Positions 248-33,546 of a stretch of 64,000 nt of DNA are shown here, one piece after another (position 1 is the first letter of the stretch; every line of letters starts with the position of its first letter). The notes under the pieces are model-generated. The model was not told the DNA's origin, searched no databases, and worked only from the letters and a program-made list of their open reading frames with translations. Both the position numbers and the translations under genes were made by a program. The stretch comes from a virus (lineage: Duplodnaviria; Caudoviricetes), in IMG/VR virus record IMGVR_UViG_3300008110_007313. One strand, given 5' to 3'.

Positions 248-378
248 AGAAGTCTTTTCCAAGTTTAGCATCTACCATTCTATGACCATGCACATCCGCC
301 CAGAACTGCTAACGCCACATAGGCAGCATGAGCCATGGCCGTGTGCAGTGTTTCAATTGGGTTTGTTGCTTGTGACAT
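231..378 (-). pseudogene. frameshifted or internally deleted hypothetical gene
   Basis: MSQATNPIETLHTAMAHAAYVAL in one frame; FWADVHGHRMVDAKLGKDFYERTN in another; frame switch near 304-310. Confidence 0.55.
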
Positions 379-566
379 TATTCTTCAACTCCGAAATGTT
401 TTAGGATATCAAAAGCATTGTCATCGTCTGCAACAAGGTCAGCACATTCACGAACAATCAACTCGGCATATTTTTCCAAAGCGGCTTCCCATGGGACTCG
501 CTTGGCACCAAGTCCGTATACATCAAGACCGCTTTGTCGTTCAAATTCTCGAAGTAGTTTGTTCAT
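378..566 (-). CDS. hypothetical phage protein (AELIVREC family)
   Basis: 62 aa ORF; LEKYAELIVRECA...KHFGVEE; overlaps neighbours. Confidence 0.8.
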   Translation of the reverse strand: MNKLLREFERQSGLDVYGLGAKRVPWEAALEKYAELIVRECADLVADDDNAFDILKHFGVEE

Positions 567-712
567 TGTATTTCTCGGTTAGGATGTTTTGGATTACGAC
601 GGTATTCGGTCTTGGGACGTTCCACACGACCGCGGAAAGGCAAGTCCTGATCAAACAGAGCACGGTGTCGACGCTCCTTGGGTATTTGTAATCGAAATTG
701 TATAGGTTTCAT
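563..712 (-). CDS. ArfA-like alternative ribosome rescue peptide (49 aa)
   Basis: ALFDQDLPFRGRVERPKTEYRRNPKHPNR resembles E. coli ArfA [31 protein letters not shown]. Confidence 0.55.
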   Translation of the reverse strand: MKPIQFRLQIPKERRHRALFDQDLPFRGRVERPKTEYRRNPKHPNREIQ

Positions 713-924
713 TCTAACTCTCCAGTTACGACATTGACTTTGCCATTGTACACAGCACAAACTATTTCCTGGTTGGCAACTTTGAATGCAGTTTCATTGA
801 AACGGTCAATGTATGCCTGTGCTTCTACGGCAGTGTCAAACTCTTTTTCCAATCTAACTTTGTGCAAATTGGGCCGTCCCAACTCAACAGGGTGAACTTG
901 AACAATATGTTTAAATTTTGCCAT
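709..924 (-). CDS. hypothetical protein
   Basis: 71 aa ORF, SD AAGGA, ATGA coupling. Confidence 0.75.
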   Translation of the reverse strand: MAKFKHIVQVHPVELGRPNLHKVRLEKEFDTAVEAQAYIDRFNETAFKVANQEIVCAVYNGKVNVVTGELE

Positions 925-945: not shown

Positions 946-1182
946 TTAACCCCAATCTTTTTTGTCGCCATTGGCTTCATTGTCGCGATAACCTGCTGTA
1001 TAGGCCGCGAGCTCTGATGGGGTCATCTGCTCCATGTCAATGCGACGACTTCTGTGAGTGTCGCCTGCAAAGTAATGAGGCCAGTAGTCACGACCGTAGT
1101 AGCTGTCTGCTACGCCGCGATCGTATGGACTGCCATGGCGTTGATCATAATGACCAGATTGTGTAGTTGTTTCTGCCAACAT
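946..1182 (-). CDS. hypothetical early protein
   Basis: Start MLAETT after SD, downstream of a sigma70 promoter. Confidence 0.75.
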   Translation of the reverse strand: MLAETTTQSGHYDQRHGSPYDRGVADSYYGRDYWPHYFAGDTHRSRRIDMEQMTPSELAAYTAGYRDNEANGDKKDWG

Positions 1183-1209: not shown

Positions 1210-1238
1210 ATTATAACAAATTGGCAATTTTGAGTCAA
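1210..1238 (-). promoter_or_regulatory. sigma70 early promoter
   Basis: TTGACT-17-TATAAT with TG extension. Confidence 0.85.
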
Positions 1239-1240
1239 CC

Positions 1241-1264
1241 AAAAGAAAAGCCCCTTGCGGGGCT
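1241..1264 (-). terminator. intrinsic terminator
   Basis: AGCCCC-GCAA-GGGGCT then TTTCTTTT. Confidence 0.85.
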
Positions 1265-1285
1265 CTAAAATGTAGTACTTGAGTA

Positions 1286-8498: not shown

Positions 8499-9290
8499 AT
8501 GATGAGTTTTGTATTTGATTTAATTTCTGATTTACATGTTGACACATGGGACGAAAACAATTGGGAAGGTATTGCTACCAGCCCAGTTTGTGTGGTGGCA
8601 GGAGATGTCAGCAAAGATCGAGCCCAGGTAGTTGACACACTGCGACGACTGGGTAAAACCTACCAAGCGGTGTTCTACATTGATGGCAACGACGAACATC
8701 AGGCCTATCTTGGTAACCTGGGCTACAGTTATGCTGATCTAGTTGGCAAAATTAACAAAATACCCAATCTAGTCTATCTACAAGACAACGTGGTTGTGAT
8801 AGATGGTGTGGCCATTATTGGTACCAATGGTTGGTGGGGATTTGATTTTGATCTAAGTGTAGACGGTCTTGCTAGTGCAGAATGGTACAAAGAAAAATTT
8901 TCTCTCAGTAACGAAGCCATCAAGGCTATCAGCAAAATGGCTACCAACGATGCTATGTATCTAATCAATTCAGTAAAACGCCTACAAACTCATTTGGACG
9001 TAAACAAAATTGTAATAGTAACTCACACTGTGCCTAACGCTGCATTGATCTCGCATGACATTGATCTAGAAGGCAAGCTCAAGTTTAATACCATGGGCAA
9101 CCGCTACATGGATCAGGTGCTAGATGCAGACACTGAAAACAAAATACATACCTGGTGCTTTGGACACTATCATGGCTCAGTGGATCAGCATAAAAATAAT
9201 ATTCGCTATGTAAACAACTGTAGAGGCAGGGGTGATACACCTTATAAAAAATATGTGTACCACCCTTTGCGTGTGGTTATAGATTATTGA
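8499..9290 (+). CDS. calcineurin-like metallophosphoesterase
   Basis: SDLH, AGD, GNDEH, THT, GHYH motifs. Confidence 0.9.
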   Translation: MMSFVFDLISDLHVDTWDENNWEGIATSPVCVVAGDVSKDRAQVVDTLRRLGKTYQAVFYIDGNDEHQAYLGNLGYSYADLVGKINKIPNLVYLQDNVVVIDGVAIIGTNGWWGFDFDLSVDGLASAEWYKEKFSLSNEAIKAISKMATNDAMYLINSVKRLQTHLDVNKIVIVTHTVPNAALISHDIDLEGKLKFNTMGNRYMDQVLDADTENKIHTWCFGHYHGSVDQHKNNIRYVNNCRGRGDTPYKKYVYHPLRVVIDY

Positions 9291-9595
9291 ACAGTGTCTG
9301 GTTCAAGTTTGATCTGCAATGGATAACTTTGAGCTCGGGCACTTACAGTAACTTCAATACCTTTTTGTTCAGCAATTTCGTAGGGCAACACCGCAACCAC
9401 AGCCGAACCTGCTTCATGAATATCTTCTGTGATGGTAAACGCAGTTTCTTCAGTGTAGTCAAAAAACTCCATTAAACTTTCAATCACAAACTCCATGGTG
9501 GTCTGATTGTCGTTGAGATAGATCACCTTGTACATCGGCGGTTCTTTGATTGATGTATTTGTTTTGACTCGTGATCTGATTTCAGATTGCGACAT
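9284..9595 (-). CDS. clpS: ATP-dependent Clp protease adaptor ClpS
   Basis: PPMYKVIYLNDNQTTMEFV..IHEAGSAVV..YEIAEQK..YPL. Confidence 0.9.
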   Translation of the reverse strand: MSQSEIRSRVKTNTSIKEPPMYKVIYLNDNQTTMEFVIESLMEFFDYTEETAFTITEDIHEAGSAVVAVLPYEIAEQKGIEVTVSARAQSYPLQIKLEPDTVQ

Positions 9596-10271
9596 TTTTT
9601 TCTCCTTTGTTGTAATGTGCATGAATTTGCACAAGGTCTTTGTTGATAAACTTGTTGTATTTGTGCCAGTTTCCTGAGCAATGTATCTGTGATGCCAAGA
9701 AGAATACACCACTACCAGCAGTATAACGGAAAACACCGTCGGGTGTCAACCAGTCCAAAAAGTGTTGCTGATGAACTGGGTCAATTGAATGTTCAAGATC
9801 TTCAGTTTCGCTGATGTTGCAGATCTTGGTTGCAGGATTGGGCGCAGGTGTAGCCCAGTCGTACAGCATTTGACTCAGGTGGTCGTTGCTGTTGGCTTCT
9901 TCTTTGCACAGTATCACATTGAATTCGGGATGCGTATCCAATGCAATAATAACAGTGTAGGTAGGAACATCAAAGTGTTTGCAGTAATCGTCCACATGTG
10001 TGCTGTGGGGCAGACTTTGACGCTGATAGTTGGCCCATATGTTTTCACACCCAGGCAAAAAGTGATGGGTGACTCTTTGTACAATATCCCAGCACTGTTG
10101 ACTTTTTGAAGGTTCAATCAACAGTCTATGATCAATTATGGGTCCTTGGTCCACCATGAGATGATCATCGGTAGTAGCATTCACGTACTTTTCTGTAGAG
10201 AATGTGTTGTAGTATTGTTTGAATAATTCAATCTCATCTGCAGAAATGAGATTGTGTTCGATTTGAGCCAT
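9582..10271 (-). CDS. hypothetical protein, possible 2OG-Fe(II) oxygenase-like
   Basis: HSTHVD..TVIIAL..QIHCS. Confidence 0.55.
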   Translation of the reverse strand: MAQIEHNLISADEIELFKQYYNTFSTEKYVNATTDDHLMVDQGPIIDHRLLIEPSKSQQCWDIVQRVTHHFLPGCENIWANYQRQSLPHSTHVDDYCKHFDVPTYTVIIALDTHPEFNVILCKEEANSNDHLSQMLYDWATPAPNPATKICNISETEDLEHSIDPVHQQHFLDWLTPDGVFRYTAGSGVFFLASQIHCSGNWHKYNKFINKDLVQIHAHYNKGEKNVAI

Positions 10272-10282
10272 GGTGTTCCTAA

Positions 10283-10306
10283 ACAGTGGCAGTTTCCTGC
10301 CACTGT
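10283..10306 (-). terminator. hairpin, probable terminator after hsp20
   Basis: 10-bp perfect stem ACAGTGGCAG/CTGCCACTGT; short U tract. Confidence 0.55.
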
Positions 10307-10319
10307 ATTTACTCTGACA

Positions 10320-10778
10320 TCAAGCAGTGTAGCTGATAGCAATGGTCTTTGGCTTGGCGTCTTCAGGAACTTCACGTGTTAGGTGTATGTTCAAGATGCC
10401 CAGTTCAAGATGCGCATTGCTGATCTCCACGTGGTCAGCTAATTGAAATTCTCTACGAAAACTTCTTTCACTGATGCCTTTGTGCAGATATTTTGCAGTG
10501 GCGTCTTCATTGTCCACAGTTTCGCGGCTGTGTTTGCCTTCGATGATCAAGACTTTTTTGTCCTTGGTCACTGAAAGATTGTCGTGCCCAAAGCCGGCTA
10601 CGGCCACGCTGATCATGTACTCGTCATCATTGATTTGTACAATATCGTAGGGTGGGTAGTTGGTGTTGCCTTGTTGCGCATTCAATCGCATTAGTTCATC
10701 AAACATTGAATCAAAACCGATACCAAATTTGTGAATTGCGGGAATGTCGAAAGAACGAAGGGTGAGAGTTTTTGTCAT
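10320..10778 (-). CDS. hsp20: small heat shock protein Hsp20 (IbpA-like)
   Basis: GIGFD, NYPPYDIV, VAVAGF, YLHKGISERSF, GILNI. Confidence 0.95.
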   Translation of the reverse strand: MTKTLTLRSFDIPAIHKFGIGFDSMFDELMRLNAQQGNTNYPPYDIVQINDDEYMISVAVAGFGHDNLSVTKDKKVLIIEGKHSRETVDNEDATAKYLHKGISERSFRREFQLADHVEISNAHLELGILNIHLTREVPEDAKPKTIAISYTA

Positions 10779-10851
10779 TTGTTTTCTCCTTTATTAAGCA
10801 AGATGACTTTTGAAATGTAGCCCGACCATCGGCACTACAAACATATTTATA
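10779..10851 (-). promoter_or_regulatory. T4-type late promoter plus ROSE-like RNA thermometer
   Basis: TATAAATA (10844-10851); bulged-G hairpin (10816-10839); CTTGCTT-AATA-AAGGAG hairpin hiding SD. Confidence 0.75.
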
Positions 10852-10870
10852 CAGGAAATCTCAACTCTTG

Positions 10871-11089
10871 TCAAGATTTTTCGATATTTTTTATTTCGTA
10901 ATCGCATGCAACCCAGGTCATAGCAAAAAGAGTAAAATGCTCTGGGTGATTTAACCCAAGTCGATATTTTAAGCCTTTGGCAACTTTGGTTGTGTAAGGT
11001 ATCTTGTAGCGGTTGGCCCAGGCGTTAACTGTATCTTTGAGACTATCGAAACTGTCCATGCTTGTGACAATATCAAACTCAATGTACAT
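10871..11089 (-). CDS. hypothetical protein
   Basis: 72 aa ORF coupled to rpsU. Confidence 0.7.
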   Translation of the reverse strand: MYIEFDIVTSMDSFDSLKDTVNAWANRYKIPYTTKVAKGLKYRLGLNHPEHFTLFAMTWVACDYEIKNIEKS

Positions 11090-11313
11090 TAGAACATTTT
11101 TTTGGGCAGTTCTTGTTCACGCAGTTTCTTACGCCAGCGTTGTTTGGCTGCTGACGCTCTGAGTTTGCGTTGAGTTGTGGGTTTGATATAGTGTTCACGA
11201 TCTCGCAGATCATTTAGCATGCCCGAAGCAGCAATTTTCTTTTTGAATTTACGCAAGGCACGATCTACGTTGCCGTCTTGTACCAGTACTGATCTTCCGT
11301 GTAGTTTTTCCAT
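11089..11313 (-). CDS. rpsU: ribosomal protein bS21
   Basis: ALRKFKKK..REHYIKPT..RKL..AAKQRWRKK. Confidence 0.92.
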   Translation of the reverse strand: MEKLHGRSVLVQDGNVDRALRKFKKKIAASGMLNDLRDREHYIKPTTQRKLRASAAKQRWRKKLREQELPKKMF

Positions 11314-11314
11314 G

Positions 11315-12502
11315 TCAGAGTTCTTTTGGACTATTTACCAAAGTTTTGTCAATATCTACGTGTTTAATGCCGTCTGAACGATAACGGCTCAGATTGTACA
11401 TGTGCGGCAGTAACACACGTTCAAGTTCTGAGTGCAGACCACGAGCACCTGTTTTGTTTTTAATGGTACGTTCAGCAATGAGATCCAGACTGTCCTTGGT
11501 AAACTCTAGGTCAACATCATCCTGCTTGAACAACCACTGATACTGACTCACGTAGTTGTGCTTGACTTCTTGCAGAATACGCACAAGATCTGCTTTATCC
11601 AGTTCTTGTAGAGCCACCCAAGTAGGAAAGCGCCCAACAAATTCAGGAATAAGACCAAATCTCACAAGATCATCGGGGGTCGTTTGATCTAGTTGACCCT
11701 TGACATCGTCTGTTATTTTAGCCCCAAATCCAATACTGGTGCCTTTGATGCGATTTTTTACAATGTTGTCTAGTCCCACAAAGGCACCGCCGGCAATGAA
11801 CAAGATGTTGGTGGTGTCGATTTCCACAGTTTCTCCTGTGGGATGTTTGCGTCCGCCTTGTGGAACAATACGACATTTGGTACCTTCTACCAACTTCAGC
11901 AAGGCCTGCTGGACACCTTCGCCTGACACATCGCGAGTGATACTGGCGCTTTCGCTTTTGCGACTGATCTTGTCAATCTCGTCCACAAACACAATACCAC
12001 GCTGTGTTTTTTCAAGGTCAAATCCCGAAGCGGCATACAGCCTTGAGATCAAACTTTCCACATCATCGCCCACATAGCCTGCTTCGGTCAGGCTGGTAGC
12101 ATCAGCAATCACAAAAGGCACATCCAGGTAACGTGCTACTGTGCGGGCCAGCAAGGTCTTGCCTGATCCTGTGGGTCCAAGCATAAGAATGTTGGCTTTT
12201 TCAATTTCGGTATTCTTGTCTTGATTGCCAATGCGTTTATAGTGATTGGCAATGGCCACGCTGAGTACCATCTTGGCCGCATCCTGACCGATCACATACT
12301 GGTCTAGATGGCGACGAATTTCTCTAGGATCAAGGCTGGGACGAGTTTCAGTATTTGTTACCGGCTGGTCTACTAGTAAATTTTGACAGAGGTCCACGCA
12401 CTCATTACAAATTGCAACGCTTTCGCCTACAATTAGTTTAGTCACGTTGTCTTTGTGTTTGCCGCAAAAACTGCAGGTATCAATAGATTTATTTTCGCTC
12501 AT
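11315..12502 (-). CDS. clpX: ATP-dependent Clp protease ATP-binding subunit ClpX
   Basis: CSFCGK Zn domain, GPTGSGKT, DEIDK, RKH loop, IGF loop, GARGL. Confidence 0.97.
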   Translation of the reverse strand: MSENKSIDTCSFCGKHKDNVTKLIVGESVAICNECVDLCQNLLVDQPVTNTETRPSLDPREIRRHLDQYVIGQDAAKMVLSVAIANHYKRIGNQDKNTEIEKANILMLGPTGSGKTLLARTVARYLDVPFVIADATSLTEAGYVGDDVESLISRLYAASGFDLEKTQRGIVFVDEIDKISRKSESASITRDVSGEGVQQALLKLVEGTKCRIVPQGGRKHPTGETVEIDTTNILFIAGGAFVGLDNIVKNRIKGTSIGFGAKITDDVKGQLDQTTPDDLVRFGLIPEFVGRFPTWVALQELDKADLVRILQEVKHNYVSQYQWLFKQDDVDLEFTKDSLDLIAERTIKNKTGARGLHSELERVLLPHMYNLSRYRSDGIKHVDIDKTLVNSPKEL

Positions 12503-30481: not shown

Positions 30482-31841
30482 AAATCATGGATTGGTGTAA
30501 ACTAACGCCTGTGTCAATTTTATTGCAAATTGTTGCAAACTGTTCTTGATCAGATTCATTTAGTACATTATACAATCTTTGATTGTACTTTGTAAAGTCC
30601 ATTTTTGTTTTTTGATCAAAATATGCGGTATGATTAAGATATTTTTTCCAGAGTTGATCATTGTCAGGTGCTGTATCTAGTTCGCCAATGGTAGTCACAA
30701 TAAAATTATAAATGCCGCGCATTTGATCTGGCCATTGTTTGAAAATTCTATGATCTAAACACTGTTGTAGCTTTTTGGCCAATTCAGGTCTATACCGTTG
30801 TGGCAGGGCCTGTACATCAAGATGTTCAGTCTGATCTACTAAATTGGCAGCATAATTATGAAATACAAAACCACGCTGTTCGTACCAGTTGCACCAGTAA
30901 TTCAACCAGTCATCAATGTAGAATATGTTGTTGAGACTAAACACAGGACTCACTGCACATTTCCAAATGGGACGCATTACCTTGCGACCCTTTACAATGG
31001 TCATTTGATTTTTGTAACTGATCAAGGTATCTAGATTTCGTTCAATTTTTTCAAATCGTGCAGGCCAACGAATGTAGCTGTAGTTTTCTCCCACCGAGTC
31101 TATGCTGAGCAGAATATCCACACTTTTGAAACGGCTTAACAATTCCATTAGTTCATCTCTGGGGTTCACTGTCATGGCAGTAGTCAGTCTGAGATTGATT
31201 TTTTCAGCGATGCCTTGCTCGCACATCCAACTCAATAACTTGGTCATGCCCGGCTGAATCAGTGTTTCGCCACCAATGAAATGCACAAAAAAATGTTGAT
31301 ACCTGTTGTGTTTTTGCATGATAGCATTGGTTATAAAATCCCAATGCTGCTCGCTGTCGCTGATGTCAGTTTCAAAAAATTCATTGACTACGTTGTTGGT
31401 AATTCTAGCAAAGGTACTGCTTTCAAAAGGACTACAACTACGACAACTGAGATTACACAAATTACTGAATTTGATTCTAACTTCGAACTCTGCTACCTGT
31501 TTGCTCTTGATAAAATGTCCCAGCCGATCCTGCGGCATTTCAACAAAGCTGCGCAGTCGTTCACTTTGTCCACCATTGGTTTCTTCTTTAAGACAGTGCC
31601 TGCAAGCATCGGGCCATTGACCCTGTGCTTGTTGTTGCTTAATTTCAACAAAAGGATCTGAACCTTTGCTGGGCACAAACAATGCCGCATCTAGATTGCA
31701 ACAGCAGGTCTGAAATATTTGATTTTTTGAAAACTCGCTGTGACGAATGTCAAGTGTGACATAGGGTGCTGGGCACAGTGCAGGATGTTCTTGCGCCCAG
31801 GCCATGCGTTTGTGCAAGGCCTGTTGAATGATATCACTCAT
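30459..31841 (-). CDS. radical SAM protein with N-terminal Cys-rich (twitch-like) domain
   Basis: CNLSCRSC, FIGGETL. Confidence 0.9.
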   Translation of the reverse strand: MSDIIQQALHKRMAWAQEHPALCPAPYVTLDIRHSEFSKNQIFQTCCCNLDAALFVPSKGSDPFVEIKQQQAQGQWPDACRHCLKEETNGGQSERLRSFVEMPQDRLGHFIKSKQVAEFEVRIKFSNLCNLSCRSCSPFESSTFARITNNVVNEFFETDISDSEQHWDFITNAIMQKHNRYQHFFVHFIGGETLIQPGMTKLLSWMCEQGIAEKINLRLTTAMTVNPRDELMELLSRFKSVDILLSIDSVGENYSYIRWPARFEKIERNLDTLISYKNQMTIVKGRKVMRPIWKCAVSPVFSLNNIFYIDDWLNYWCNWYEQRGFVFHNYAANLVDQTEHLDVQALPQRYRPELAKKLQQCLDHRIFKQWPDQMRGIYNFIVTTIGELDTAPDNDQLWKKYLNHTAYFDQKTKMDFTKYNQRLYNVLNESDQEQFATICNKIDTGVSLHQSMIFVPNVQS

Positions 31842-32158
31842 ACCCTAAAACTTTCCCCACAACCGCAGCGGTCACGCTCATTGGGATTTCGAAATTCAAA
31901 TCCTTCGTTCAGTCCGTTGCGCACAAAATCAATTTCTGTGCCTTGTACATAAGCACAACTTTTTGGATCTATAAAAACTTTGCAGTCAAGACATTCAACA
32001 CACTGATCTTCAGGCGCTGGAGAATCCACATACTCTAGCACATAGGCCAGTCCTGAGCACCCAGTGGTTTTTACACCAATCCGAACACCAACTCCGTGTC
32101 CTCTTCGGTTCAATGTTTGTTGTATCTTACGAGCAGCTAAGGGAGTTATTGTTATCAT
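31838..32158 (-). CDS. iscA: Fe-S cluster A-type carrier IscA
   Basis: TTGCSGLAY, CGCGESF. Confidence 0.95.
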   Translation of the reverse strand: MITITPLAARKIQQTLNRRGHGVGVRIGVKTTGCSGLAYVLEYVDSPAPEDQCVECLDCKVFIDPKSCAYVQGTEIDFVRNGLNEGFEFRNPNERDRCGCGESFRV

Positions 32159-33146
32159 CTTTTGTACACCATCTTTTGCACACTGTCGGTTGCTTGTCAG
32201 TATTCCAAGATTCAACCAAGCGGTCAAACCAGGCAATAGCCGACTCTACCCCCACTGTAGGGCCATGGTTGCCATGTACATACTCACGTAATTCTGTGTT
32301 CCAGACCTGTAGAGCATTATGGTTGTGATACTGTTGAGGGTTGTGCCCTGTCCAACAACAGGGATACACATATCCATCAGATGCCACATAAACACTGCGT
32401 TCACGCACAGCCCAACAGTCAATGTTCACTTTTTTGCTGTCTGTGTATTTTGGCATTTCAGTAACCACTTTGACAATTTGATCTTGTATAAATTGATCGT
32501 TGACTTGGTCAGGATATTGCCAGTCAGTTCGTATTGAAAAAATTTTGTTTCCTTTGCGATCGTAACTGGGACCGTTGTTTCGATCTGTTTCGCGTTCTTC
32601 TAGCCACATAAATCCTAGGTCCTTGGCCATTTGATACATTTCAGGTAATTGTGGTCGATTGTGATCAAACACATTGGCCATCCATATTGCCTGACCGCCT
32701 GCATCAATAAAAGTTTTAGCATTGCGTATCACGTTTTCAAACACAGTGTCTTGACGATATAAACTGTGAGTGTCTGACAGACCATCAATGCCAAATATAC
32801 CAAATACTCTGAGCTTGGCCAATCCTCTCCAGAATTCTTTGTCTCGGGCGCCACCGTTGGTGTGCACTCTTATGCTCATGTCCGGGTTGGCCTGTCTCAT
32901 GTAGGCAATGATATCCAGGGTTTCTGGATTCATTATTGCGTCGCCAAAGTTACCATTGATGATAGCAATGTGAACCCTACTGAGTCGGGTCAGCGAAAAT
33001 ATTTTTTTAAAATCTTCAAGGCTGAGATTGGTCTCAGTGTATCCCATGTTATAAGGATATCCTAAAAAATTTCTAGGACAGAAAGAGCATCTAGCGTTAC
33101 AAAGTGAGCTTAACTCTAGATGCAAATGATTGATTTCATATTGCAT
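32127..33146 (-). CDS. radical SAM / SPASM-twitch protein
   Basis: CNARCSFC, HTNGG, DGYVYPCC, CKRWC. Confidence 0.9.
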   Translation of the reverse strand: MQYEINHLHLELSSLCNARCSFCPRNFLGYPYNMGYTETNLSLEDFKKIFSLTRLSRVHIAIINGNFGDAIMNPETLDIIAYMRQANPDMSIRVHTNGGARDKEFWRGLAKLRVFGIFGIDGLSDTHSLYRQDTVFENVIRNAKTFIDAGGQAIWMANVFDHNRPQLPEMYQMAKDLGFMWLEERETDRNNGPSYDRKGNKIFSIRTDWQYPDQVNDQFIQDQIVKVVTEMPKYTDSKKVNIDCWAVRERSVYVASDGYVYPCCWTGHNPQQYHNHNALQVWNTELREYVHGNHGPTVGVESAIAWFDRLVESWNTDKQPTVCKRWCTKDDNNNSLSCS

Positions 33147-33156
33147 CCCATACTTA

Positions 33157-33546
33157 TCAAGCCAGTTTGGCCTGTGCTCGTTGTTTGTAGTTTTCTACTG
33201 CCGCTTTGATGGCATCTTCTGCAAGTATTGAACAGTGAATTTTAACAGGGGGGAGGGCAAGCTCATCAGCAATCTCGCTATTTTTAATCGCTGCCGCTTC
33301 GTCAAGTGTGCGTCCTTTGACCCATTCAGTAACCAGCGAACTCGACGCAATCGCTGAGCCACAACCATACGTTTTAAATCTTGCATCTGTGATTACTCCG
33401 TCTTTTACTTTTATTTGTAACTTCATCACATCACCGCAGGCAGGTGCTCCTACCATGCCAGTACCTACGTCTTCGTCGCTCTTGTCAAACGATCCCACAT
33501 TGCGTGGATTTTCGTAATGGTCTACAACTTGATTGGAATATGCCAT
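33157..33546 (-). CDS. iscU: Fe-S scaffold IscU
   Basis: DHYENPRN, GAPACGD, GCGSAIAS, LPPVKIHC. Confidence 0.97.
   Translation of the reverse strand: MAYSNQVVDHYENPRNVGSFDKSDEDVGTGMVGAPACGDVMKLQIKVKDGVITDARFKTYGCGSAIASSSLVTEWVKGRTLDEAAAIKNSEIADELALPPVKIHCSILAEDAIKAAVENYKQRAQAKLA

Follow-up and report, generated by a model that had tools for sequence, protein, structure and literature searches.

A short phage gene remotely homologous to ArfA that may encode an unregulated ribosome rescue factor

The window analysed here, a 64,000-nucleotide stretch of DNA from a large freshwater phage whose ribonucleotide reductase is closest to those of Xanthomonas and Ralstonia phages (53-56%), contains a very small gene that raises a question: does its product rescue stalled ribosomes in the manner of the bacterial factor ArfA? 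A first-pass annotation had described positions 563-712 as coding for a 49-amino-acid basic peptide, and this was borne out. On the minus strand, 49 codons run from ATG to TGA, and the product, P0001, has 14 lysines and arginines and six aspartates and glutamates.

563-712, minus strand: ArfA-like gene P0001, 49 amino acids, with its own TGA stop and no hydrophobic tail (from the open reading frame, selection and homology)
575-658, minus strand: conserved core, residues 19-46, with Leu19, Pro25-Phe26, Arg-Val-Glu, Tyr37-x-Arg39 and Lys42-His43 (from column conservation and alignments)

P0001 is a real gene under selection. Gene callers predicted it in four independent assemblies, and at least 21 contigs carry a call for the identical protein. 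Across 18 in-register phage copies, differences at the first, second and third codon positions numbered 1273, 1115 and 3083, the third varying about 2.6 times as much as the first or second, and pN/pS was 0.25 for the whole gene and 0.19 for the core, indicating purifying selection. The P0001 frame had a stop in none of the 18 copies, while each other frame had stops in 8-18 of them. A 118-codon plus-strand ORF at 335-691 overlaps P0001 and is longer, but its frame is broken within 129 nt in 8 of the 18 homologous loci; together with purifying selection on the minus frame, this rules it out as the true gene and makes it exceedingly improbable that P0001 is spurious.

To relate P0001 to ArfA, we relied on family profiles. 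By itself, the peptide matched nothing in Pfam ArfA (PF03889), NCBIfam or the PDB (phmmer for the latter two); it missed the PF03889 gathering cut-off of 25.5 bits, and its best direct matches were DUF7230 (E = 0.01, below cut-off) and phrog_6310 (E = 2e-4). We used 66 close homologues and 150 more distant representatives. Weak PF03889 matches occurred in only two of the 66 close and nine of 149 wide family members, and in none of five related phage genomes. JGI names 11 of the 66 close homologues ArfA, and the three distant representatives examined have phage genes around them, for example T4-like gp59/gp32 or phage endonuclease I. A profile of the 66 homologues, searched against 177,635 PDB sequences, matched only E. 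coli ArfA (E = 7e-4), as did the 149-member profile (E = 3e-3); up to E = 10, these PDB searches returned only E. coli ArfA chains, with no match to BrfA, a Bacillus subtilis rescue factor. With hhalign, the probability of the match to ArfA was 88% for the close profile and 72% for the wide one.

Because short basic peptides match one another easily, we ran HMM controls. On an HMM built only from ArfAs that contain the loop described below, P0001 scored 8.8 bits, compared to a maximum of 7.8 in 2000 shuffles; reversed family members and 845 other small ORFs stayed below 4.4 bits (ORF maximum, 4.3), and about half of the family scored above the best natural decoy. In the reverse test, E. coli ArfA scored 19.8 bits on the family HMM, compared to a maximum of 11.6 in 1890 shuffles. 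The ArfA of Pseudoalteromonas phage J2-1, the best cultured-phage match to P0001 (51% over 37 residues) and the owner of the same loop-less spacer, exceeds both cut-offs: 41.3 bits against 25.5 for Pfam ArfA and 28.6 against 27 for DUF7230. Based on the profile matches, the controls and the J2-1 bridge, remote homology to ArfA is well supported at the level of family profiles, with a significant alignment that spans only 22-28 residues (some 25 alignable columns). In the kind of HMM check suggested by the first-pass annotation, the peptide thus came out as ArfA-like with family profiles and reciprocal HMMs, which beat their controls, but not as a strict PF03889 member, as P0001 itself falls below that cut-off.

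Structure prediction added little. The nearest ESM Atlas clusters were unnamed or contained 10% DUF7230 or 23% ArfA members (scores 0.92-0.93), and serve as a lead only. AlphaFold2 modelled the free peptide as extended, with one short helix at residues 17-20 and a pTM of 0.28, and Foldseek found no match to this model in the PDB; the peptide would be expected to fold on the ribosome. A predicted complex between the family alignment and residues 120-345 of E. coli RF2, used as a stand-in and modelled without the ribosome, scored 0.01. ArfA meets RF2 only on the ribosome, and we gave this score no weight for or against the homology.

Which parts of ArfA does P0001 retain? Phe26 and Arg29-Val30-Glu31 align with ArfA in every method, Phe26 being equivalent to ArfA Phe25 and the triplet to the strand at residues 28-30. 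Tyr37 and Arg39 align with E. coli ArfA Tyr39 and Arg41, and Lys42-His43 with Lys44-His45. Conservation in the wide family is 95% for Phe26, 88% for Tyr37, 100% for Arg39, 99% for Lys42 and 88% for His43, and of these, Phe26, Arg39, Lys42 and His43 match positions that are functional in ArfA structures (PMC5378476, PMC8012679, PMC6881298). Judged by alignment, P0001 keeps the residues of the RF2-pairing strand and of the Lys-His channel motif, and 7 of the 15 residues in its channel segment are basic. The pattern L..D..FR.RVE..K...Y.R..KH.NR, quoted earlier as ArfA-like, fits neither P0001 nor E. coli ArfA as a whole; its parts FR.RVE..K and Y.R..KH.NR fit both.

Among the closest known systems is E. 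coli ArfA (YhdL; PF03889; PDB 5U4I, 5MDV, 5H5U and 5MGP). Both proteins have the Phe-Arg-x-Arg-Val-Glu strand, the Tyr-x-Arg-x-x-Lys-His segment, a short helix before the channel segment and a basic C-terminal half, and the size of P0001 is near that of active truncated ArfA. P0001 differs in its sub-threshold Pfam score, a loop shorter by three residues, an insertion before Phe26 and unrelated residues 1-17. It also has a normal stop, lacks the hydrophobic tail and the RNase III or terminator hairpin, is phage-borne and is known from sequence.

The N-terminal half is where the correspondence fades. Residues 1-17 could not be aligned with the ArfA N-terminal minidomain, the folding of which opens RF2, and the segment before Phe26 is longer by as many as two residues, according to the register chosen. 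In the pairwise alignment, Ala18 falls on E. coli ArfA Ala18; in family members that start NPYAKAL, Leu19 falls on E. coli Leu20 and Asp21 on Asp22, with a two-residue insertion before Phe26. Since the register is ambiguous between the pairwise and bridging alignments, we set Ala18 aside and did not count it as conserved; its column is alanine in only 36% of the wide family. The family has near-fixed residues of its own, Arg14, His16 and Pro25, which ArfA lacks.

We estimate at roughly 55% the probability that P0001 is an unregulated RF2-dependent ribosome rescue factor. In this scheme, P0001 would be a small unstructured peptide of the ArfA superfamily, made early in infection without tmRNA control. 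We infer its early production, its binding to the ribosome, its recruitment and activation of RF2, and the origin of the broken mRNA. Its basic C-terminal half, with Lys-His, would enter the mRNA channel left empty when a host 70S ribosome stalls on a truncated mRNA. Phe26 and the short strand that follows would pair with host RF2, at its domain 2 and Trp switch loop, and open it; the nascent chain would be released without a stop codon, and the ribosome would become available again for phage translation. One point against the rescue reading is that ArfA and BrfA each fit the RF2 of their own species.

A second possibility, unlikely but the strongest competitor, is that P0001 plugs the channel without causing release. 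It would fill the empty mRNA channel and might hold RF2 closed, as ArfA(A18T) does, thereby blocking host tmRNA-SmpB or ArfB or parking ribosomes, so that the outcome would be host takeover rather than rescue. The channel-binding half is indeed the best conserved part of the peptide, while the activating N-terminal minidomain and Ala18 could not be placed with confidence, and ArfA carrying A18T still binds RF2 but loses release. Most homologues also lie directly behind a strong host-type promoter, as takeover genes do. However, Phe26 and the hydrophobic residues before it are almost invariant, and in ArfA these contact Trp319 in the open state. In viral ArfAs that have the loop, too, the first residue corresponds to about residue 10-12 of E. 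coli, and the N terminus with which BrfA activates RF2 is unrelated. BrfA (PMC6881298) shares with P0001 a Phe, which in BrfA stacks against the switch Trp of RF2, together with an added short strand and Lys-His; it is a release-factor-dependent rescue factor, with which Francisella ArfT is grouped, and shows that RF2 can be opened by another N terminus, although BrfA, unlike what is predicted for P0001, is made from non-stop mRNA.

The first-pass annotation overlooked one real difference from ArfA, the loss of three residues of the KKGKGS loop. The spacer from Phe to Tyr is 10 residues in P0001 and 13 in E. coli ArfA, and the GKG turn is gone, whereas the loop is nearly invariant in the other ArfAs aligned. 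Among 205 family members measured, the spacer was 10 residues in 185, 11 in 19 and 12 in one, and GKG or GRG occurred anywhere in only 2 of 216. Because the spacer is fixed at 10-11 in 204 of the 205, loss of the loop appears to have been selected.

The same constancy is an argument for a changed specificity, which we consider quite unlikely. Loss of the loop, at the A-site end, would permit several mRNA bases past the P site, or use of both RF1 and RF2, as with ArfT, and the targets would be ribosomes stalled mid-message, for example by tRNA cleavage. Consistent with this, the ArfA C-terminal loop limits the overhang to about three bases. That the deleted residues gauge mRNA length is, however, our inference; the Lys-His motif binds inside the channel, where it would still clash with a full-length mRNA, and Phe26 is the residue that favors RF2 over RF1.

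The loop-less C-terminal half also occurs in DUF7230 (PF23876), phrog_6310, phrog_2701 and phrog_18092, all small phage proteins. Weak matches to this group were found in 50 of 66 close and 65 of 149 wide family members; for P0001, the DUF7230 match reached 16.4 bits against a cut-off of 27 and covered only residues 28-47. As these families, to which no function is assigned, provide the best direct matches, the part significantly alignable with ArfA is short, and the near-invariant Arg14, His16 and Pro25 are missing from ArfA, P0001 could have no role on the ribosome and instead be a DUF7230-like basic protein that binds other RNA or DNA, its likeness to ArfA reflecting remote ancestry with a changed function or convergence of short basic motifs. 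We regard this as very unlikely: P0001 outscores composition-matched shuffles, reversed sequences and natural basic ORFs, J2-1 joins DUF7230 to ArfA above both cut-offs, and the conserved positions include the ribosome and RF2 contacts of ArfA.

We then considered the C terminus, whose lack of a tail the first-pass annotation had singled out. The tail is absent, as claimed: P0001 ends 12 residues past Tyr37, compared to 33 past the equivalent Tyr39 in E. coli ArfA, and its end is polar. This is the rule among phage ArfA-like genes, with a median of 13 residues after the Tyr both in 55 distinct loop-containing viral ArfAs and in the P0001 family. In the cultured phages Arash, pf16, XM05, Bambus, Kabachok, Cr30, CRP-212 and RsoM2USA, ArfA ends right past the core. 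A sample of 400 bacterial genomes gave six ArfA matches, five with tails of 18-47 residues and one with seven. Because short ends are common in cultured and annotated phage ArfAs, we ruled out the missing tail as a distinguishing feature of P0001. The bacterial ArfA with seven residues after the Tyr sits at the contig start of its assembly and may be prophage DNA.

Control of E. coli arfA depends on a 3′ hairpin and an unstable hydrophobic tail. For the P0001 gene, 3′ hairpin folding gave z scores of +0.2 and +0.5, compared to -4.5 for E. coli arfA. Among homologues, the median z was -0.35 and only 1 of 34 fell below -3, with E. coli at -6.8 in this comparison. E. coli ArfA retains activity when truncated at Asn47, and P0001 runs four residues past the equivalent of Asn47. 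With its own stop and no hairpin, P0001 should be made whole whenever the gene is transcribed. The proposal that it escapes non-stop/tmRNA control thus gains support from three sequence features: its stop codon, the missing 3′ hairpin and a C terminus that lies shortly after Asn47, the limit for activity. A few viral ArfAs, RXM g10 and two others, have a hydrophobic tail like that of bacterial ArfA, and tmRNA-type control may exist there.

If P0001 escapes this control, when would it be made? The gene is predicted, from the following features, to lie inside an early-type operon.

1247-1266, minus strand: intrinsic-terminator-like hairpin that sets the operon apart from upstream transcription
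1210-1238, minus strand: near-consensus sigma-70 promoter, TTGACT-17-TATAAT with an upstream TG (11/12), heading the predicted operon; a consensus match only, in a region where the total count of sigma-70 consensus matches is not above that in shuffles
946-1182, minus strand: first gene of the predicted operon, 78 amino acids, no assigned function (gene call)
720-723, minus strand: GGAG Shine-Dalgarno-like site, 7 nt before the P0001 ATG and inside the upstream gene
709-924, minus strand: upstream gene, 71 amino acids, no assigned function; its stop overlaps the P0001 start (ATGA)
378-566, minus strand: downstream gene, 62 amino acids, no assigned function; its start overlaps the P0001 stop (ATGA)

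The 62-amino-acid downstream gene contains the blocks YAELIVREC and HFGVEE, the sole such copy in the window, and in its tail a GGAG precedes the TAATG by which it overlaps the next ORF (280-378). Elsewhere in the window, a hairpin at 2048-2073, flanked by A and T runs and placed between two convergent genes, is likely a bidirectional terminator.

Promoters in the wider family point the same way. In 23 of 30 distinct homologous loci, which are related to one another, a -10 hexamer ends 5-10 nt before the ATG, compared to 18 of 374 for other ORFs there, a background that takes in non-genes. These 23 loci usually have a -35 box about 17 nt upstream and lack a Shine-Dalgarno site. The arrangement suggests early transcription by the host polymerase and a leader of 0-3 nt, that is, a nearly leaderless mRNA. 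The copy in the window is an exception to the near-ATG -10 box, with apparently coupled translation inside an operon that has the same promoter type.

We next asked what phage and host P0001 serves. Pfam confirmed bS21, ClpS and IscU in the window; a clpX-like ORF at 11315-12502 is named from motifs only.

11089-11313, minus strand: phage ribosomal protein bS21 (rpsU), Pfam PF01165, 62 bits; in a separate operon
33157-33546, minus strand: phage IscU (Pfam), 81-87% identical to Burkholderiales/Comamonadaceae IscU among the matches listed

The first-pass annotation had taken rpsU and clpX as fitting company for a rescue factor. Both were located, clpX by its motifs, but at a distance of over 10 kb and in a different transcription unit. 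The peptide cluster of P0001 occurs on contigs of up to 229 kb, and close homologues are present in one copy each in five viral contigs of 210-349 kb, all five of which carry bS21. This co-occurrence reflects shared descent within one phage clade, and we ruled it out as independent support. Host-type housekeeping genes lie at 9284-12502 and 31838-33546 (ClpS, Hsp20, bS21, the ClpX-like ATPase, IscU and a probable IscA), related contigs have two ClpP genes past the left edge of the window, and no tRNA or tmRNA was found in the 64-kb window.

One gene, IscU, hints that the host family is likely Comamonadaceae, many of which were among the matches listed by a scan seeded with the phage sequence. 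In 301 Comamonadaceae genomes, we found neither a PF03889 match nor a relative of the wide family profile, and the lack of ArfA agrees with a survey in which arfA was present in only 37 of 1000 Betaproteobacteria (PMC11633108). Close-family patterns found no relative in 185,579 bacterial and archaeal genomes. Since the five large relatives yielded no release factor gene, the partner RF2 would be the host's. Val198, Phe217, Phe221 and Trp319 are all kept in the RF2 of five candidate hosts. As these residues are common among RF2s, the host RF2 data show compatibility rather than partnership.

Translation genes are familiar phage cargo: phages carry tRNAs, tmRNA, SmpB, release factors and peptidyl-tRNA hydrolases (PMC7162821, PMC7824862). 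Two papers (PMC8953757, PMC12753301), GenBank records and, for members of the P0001 family, JGI already use the name ArfA for phage genes, in all cases from similarity. Annotated examples are J2-1 ATN93434 (51 amino acids), Citromicrobium phage RXM g10 (PMC8953757), pelagiphage HTVC027P gp30, reported to be expressed early and late (PMC12753301), and the 39-amino-acid ArfAs of Brevundimonas phages Bambus and Kabachok. Those of J2-1, Bambus and Kabachok are short like P0001 and end right past the core; these and the RXM protein pass the Pfam ArfA cut-off, unlike P0001. All but J2-1 keep the GKG loop, and RXM ArfA has a hydrophobic tail. The R-x-H-x-x-L-F ... L-P-F signature of the P0001 subfamily occurs in none of these annotated phage ArfAs. 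The literature searched yielded no functional test of a phage ArfA and nothing relevant on DUF7230, KKGKGS or phage ArfA homologues.

Our searches also brought up several ArfA-like genes outside the P0001 family. Salmonella phage Arash gp99c (417-641 of its locus) bears the annotation ribosomal protein L2 but is clearly an ArfA (67.8 bits with Pfam), and RsoM2USA, pf16, Cr30 and CRP-212 have short ArfA-like ORFs with the GKG loop that are unannotated in GenBank. In six viral proteins of 98-142 amino acids, the ArfA-like core continues into a C-terminal domain of some 55 residues, conserved and basic, that ends GGGY. The name ArfA also occurs 18 times in an enterococcal phage paper (PMC10680825). 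An unrelated anti-restriction protein bears the same name and is probably what is meant there, a clash of names. ArfA-like genes occur at six loci in phages of Alphaproteobacteria, despite the finding of arfA in none of 2376 alphaproteobacterial genomes (PMC11633108). The ArfA family may be commoner in phages than in cells.

Where would the broken mRNA come from? It could arise from phage-driven decay of host mRNA or from host nuclease defenses. That P0001 acts against mRNA-cleaving anti-phage toxins, as the first-pass annotation proposed, is plausible by analogy with phage translation-repair genes (PMC7824862) but speculative. A broader version, which we consider doubtful, is that loss of the loop in a multi-lineage family known to date only from phages lets peptides of the P0001 type release or capture ribosomes that ArfA and tmRNA cannot, as a general counter to translation-shutoff defenses. 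The targets would then be ribosomes stalled with mRNA in the A site, as after anti-phage cleavage of tRNA or mRNA, and the peptide would be produced within minutes of infection, from an mRNA with almost no leader, in hosts without ArfA.

Short phage ArfAs are common and already named in databases, and P0001 has no unique feature among them. To that picture this analysis adds a loop loss that is fixed across the family, a link to DUF7230 by way of J2-1, a putative early promoter that leaves almost no leader, and a likely host in which ArfA seems to be missing. Going by its sequence, P0001 probably works like ArfA. As a rescue factor, it would keep ribosomes cycling while mRNAs are cut during infection and would provide a rescue route of the ArfA type in a host family that seemingly has none.
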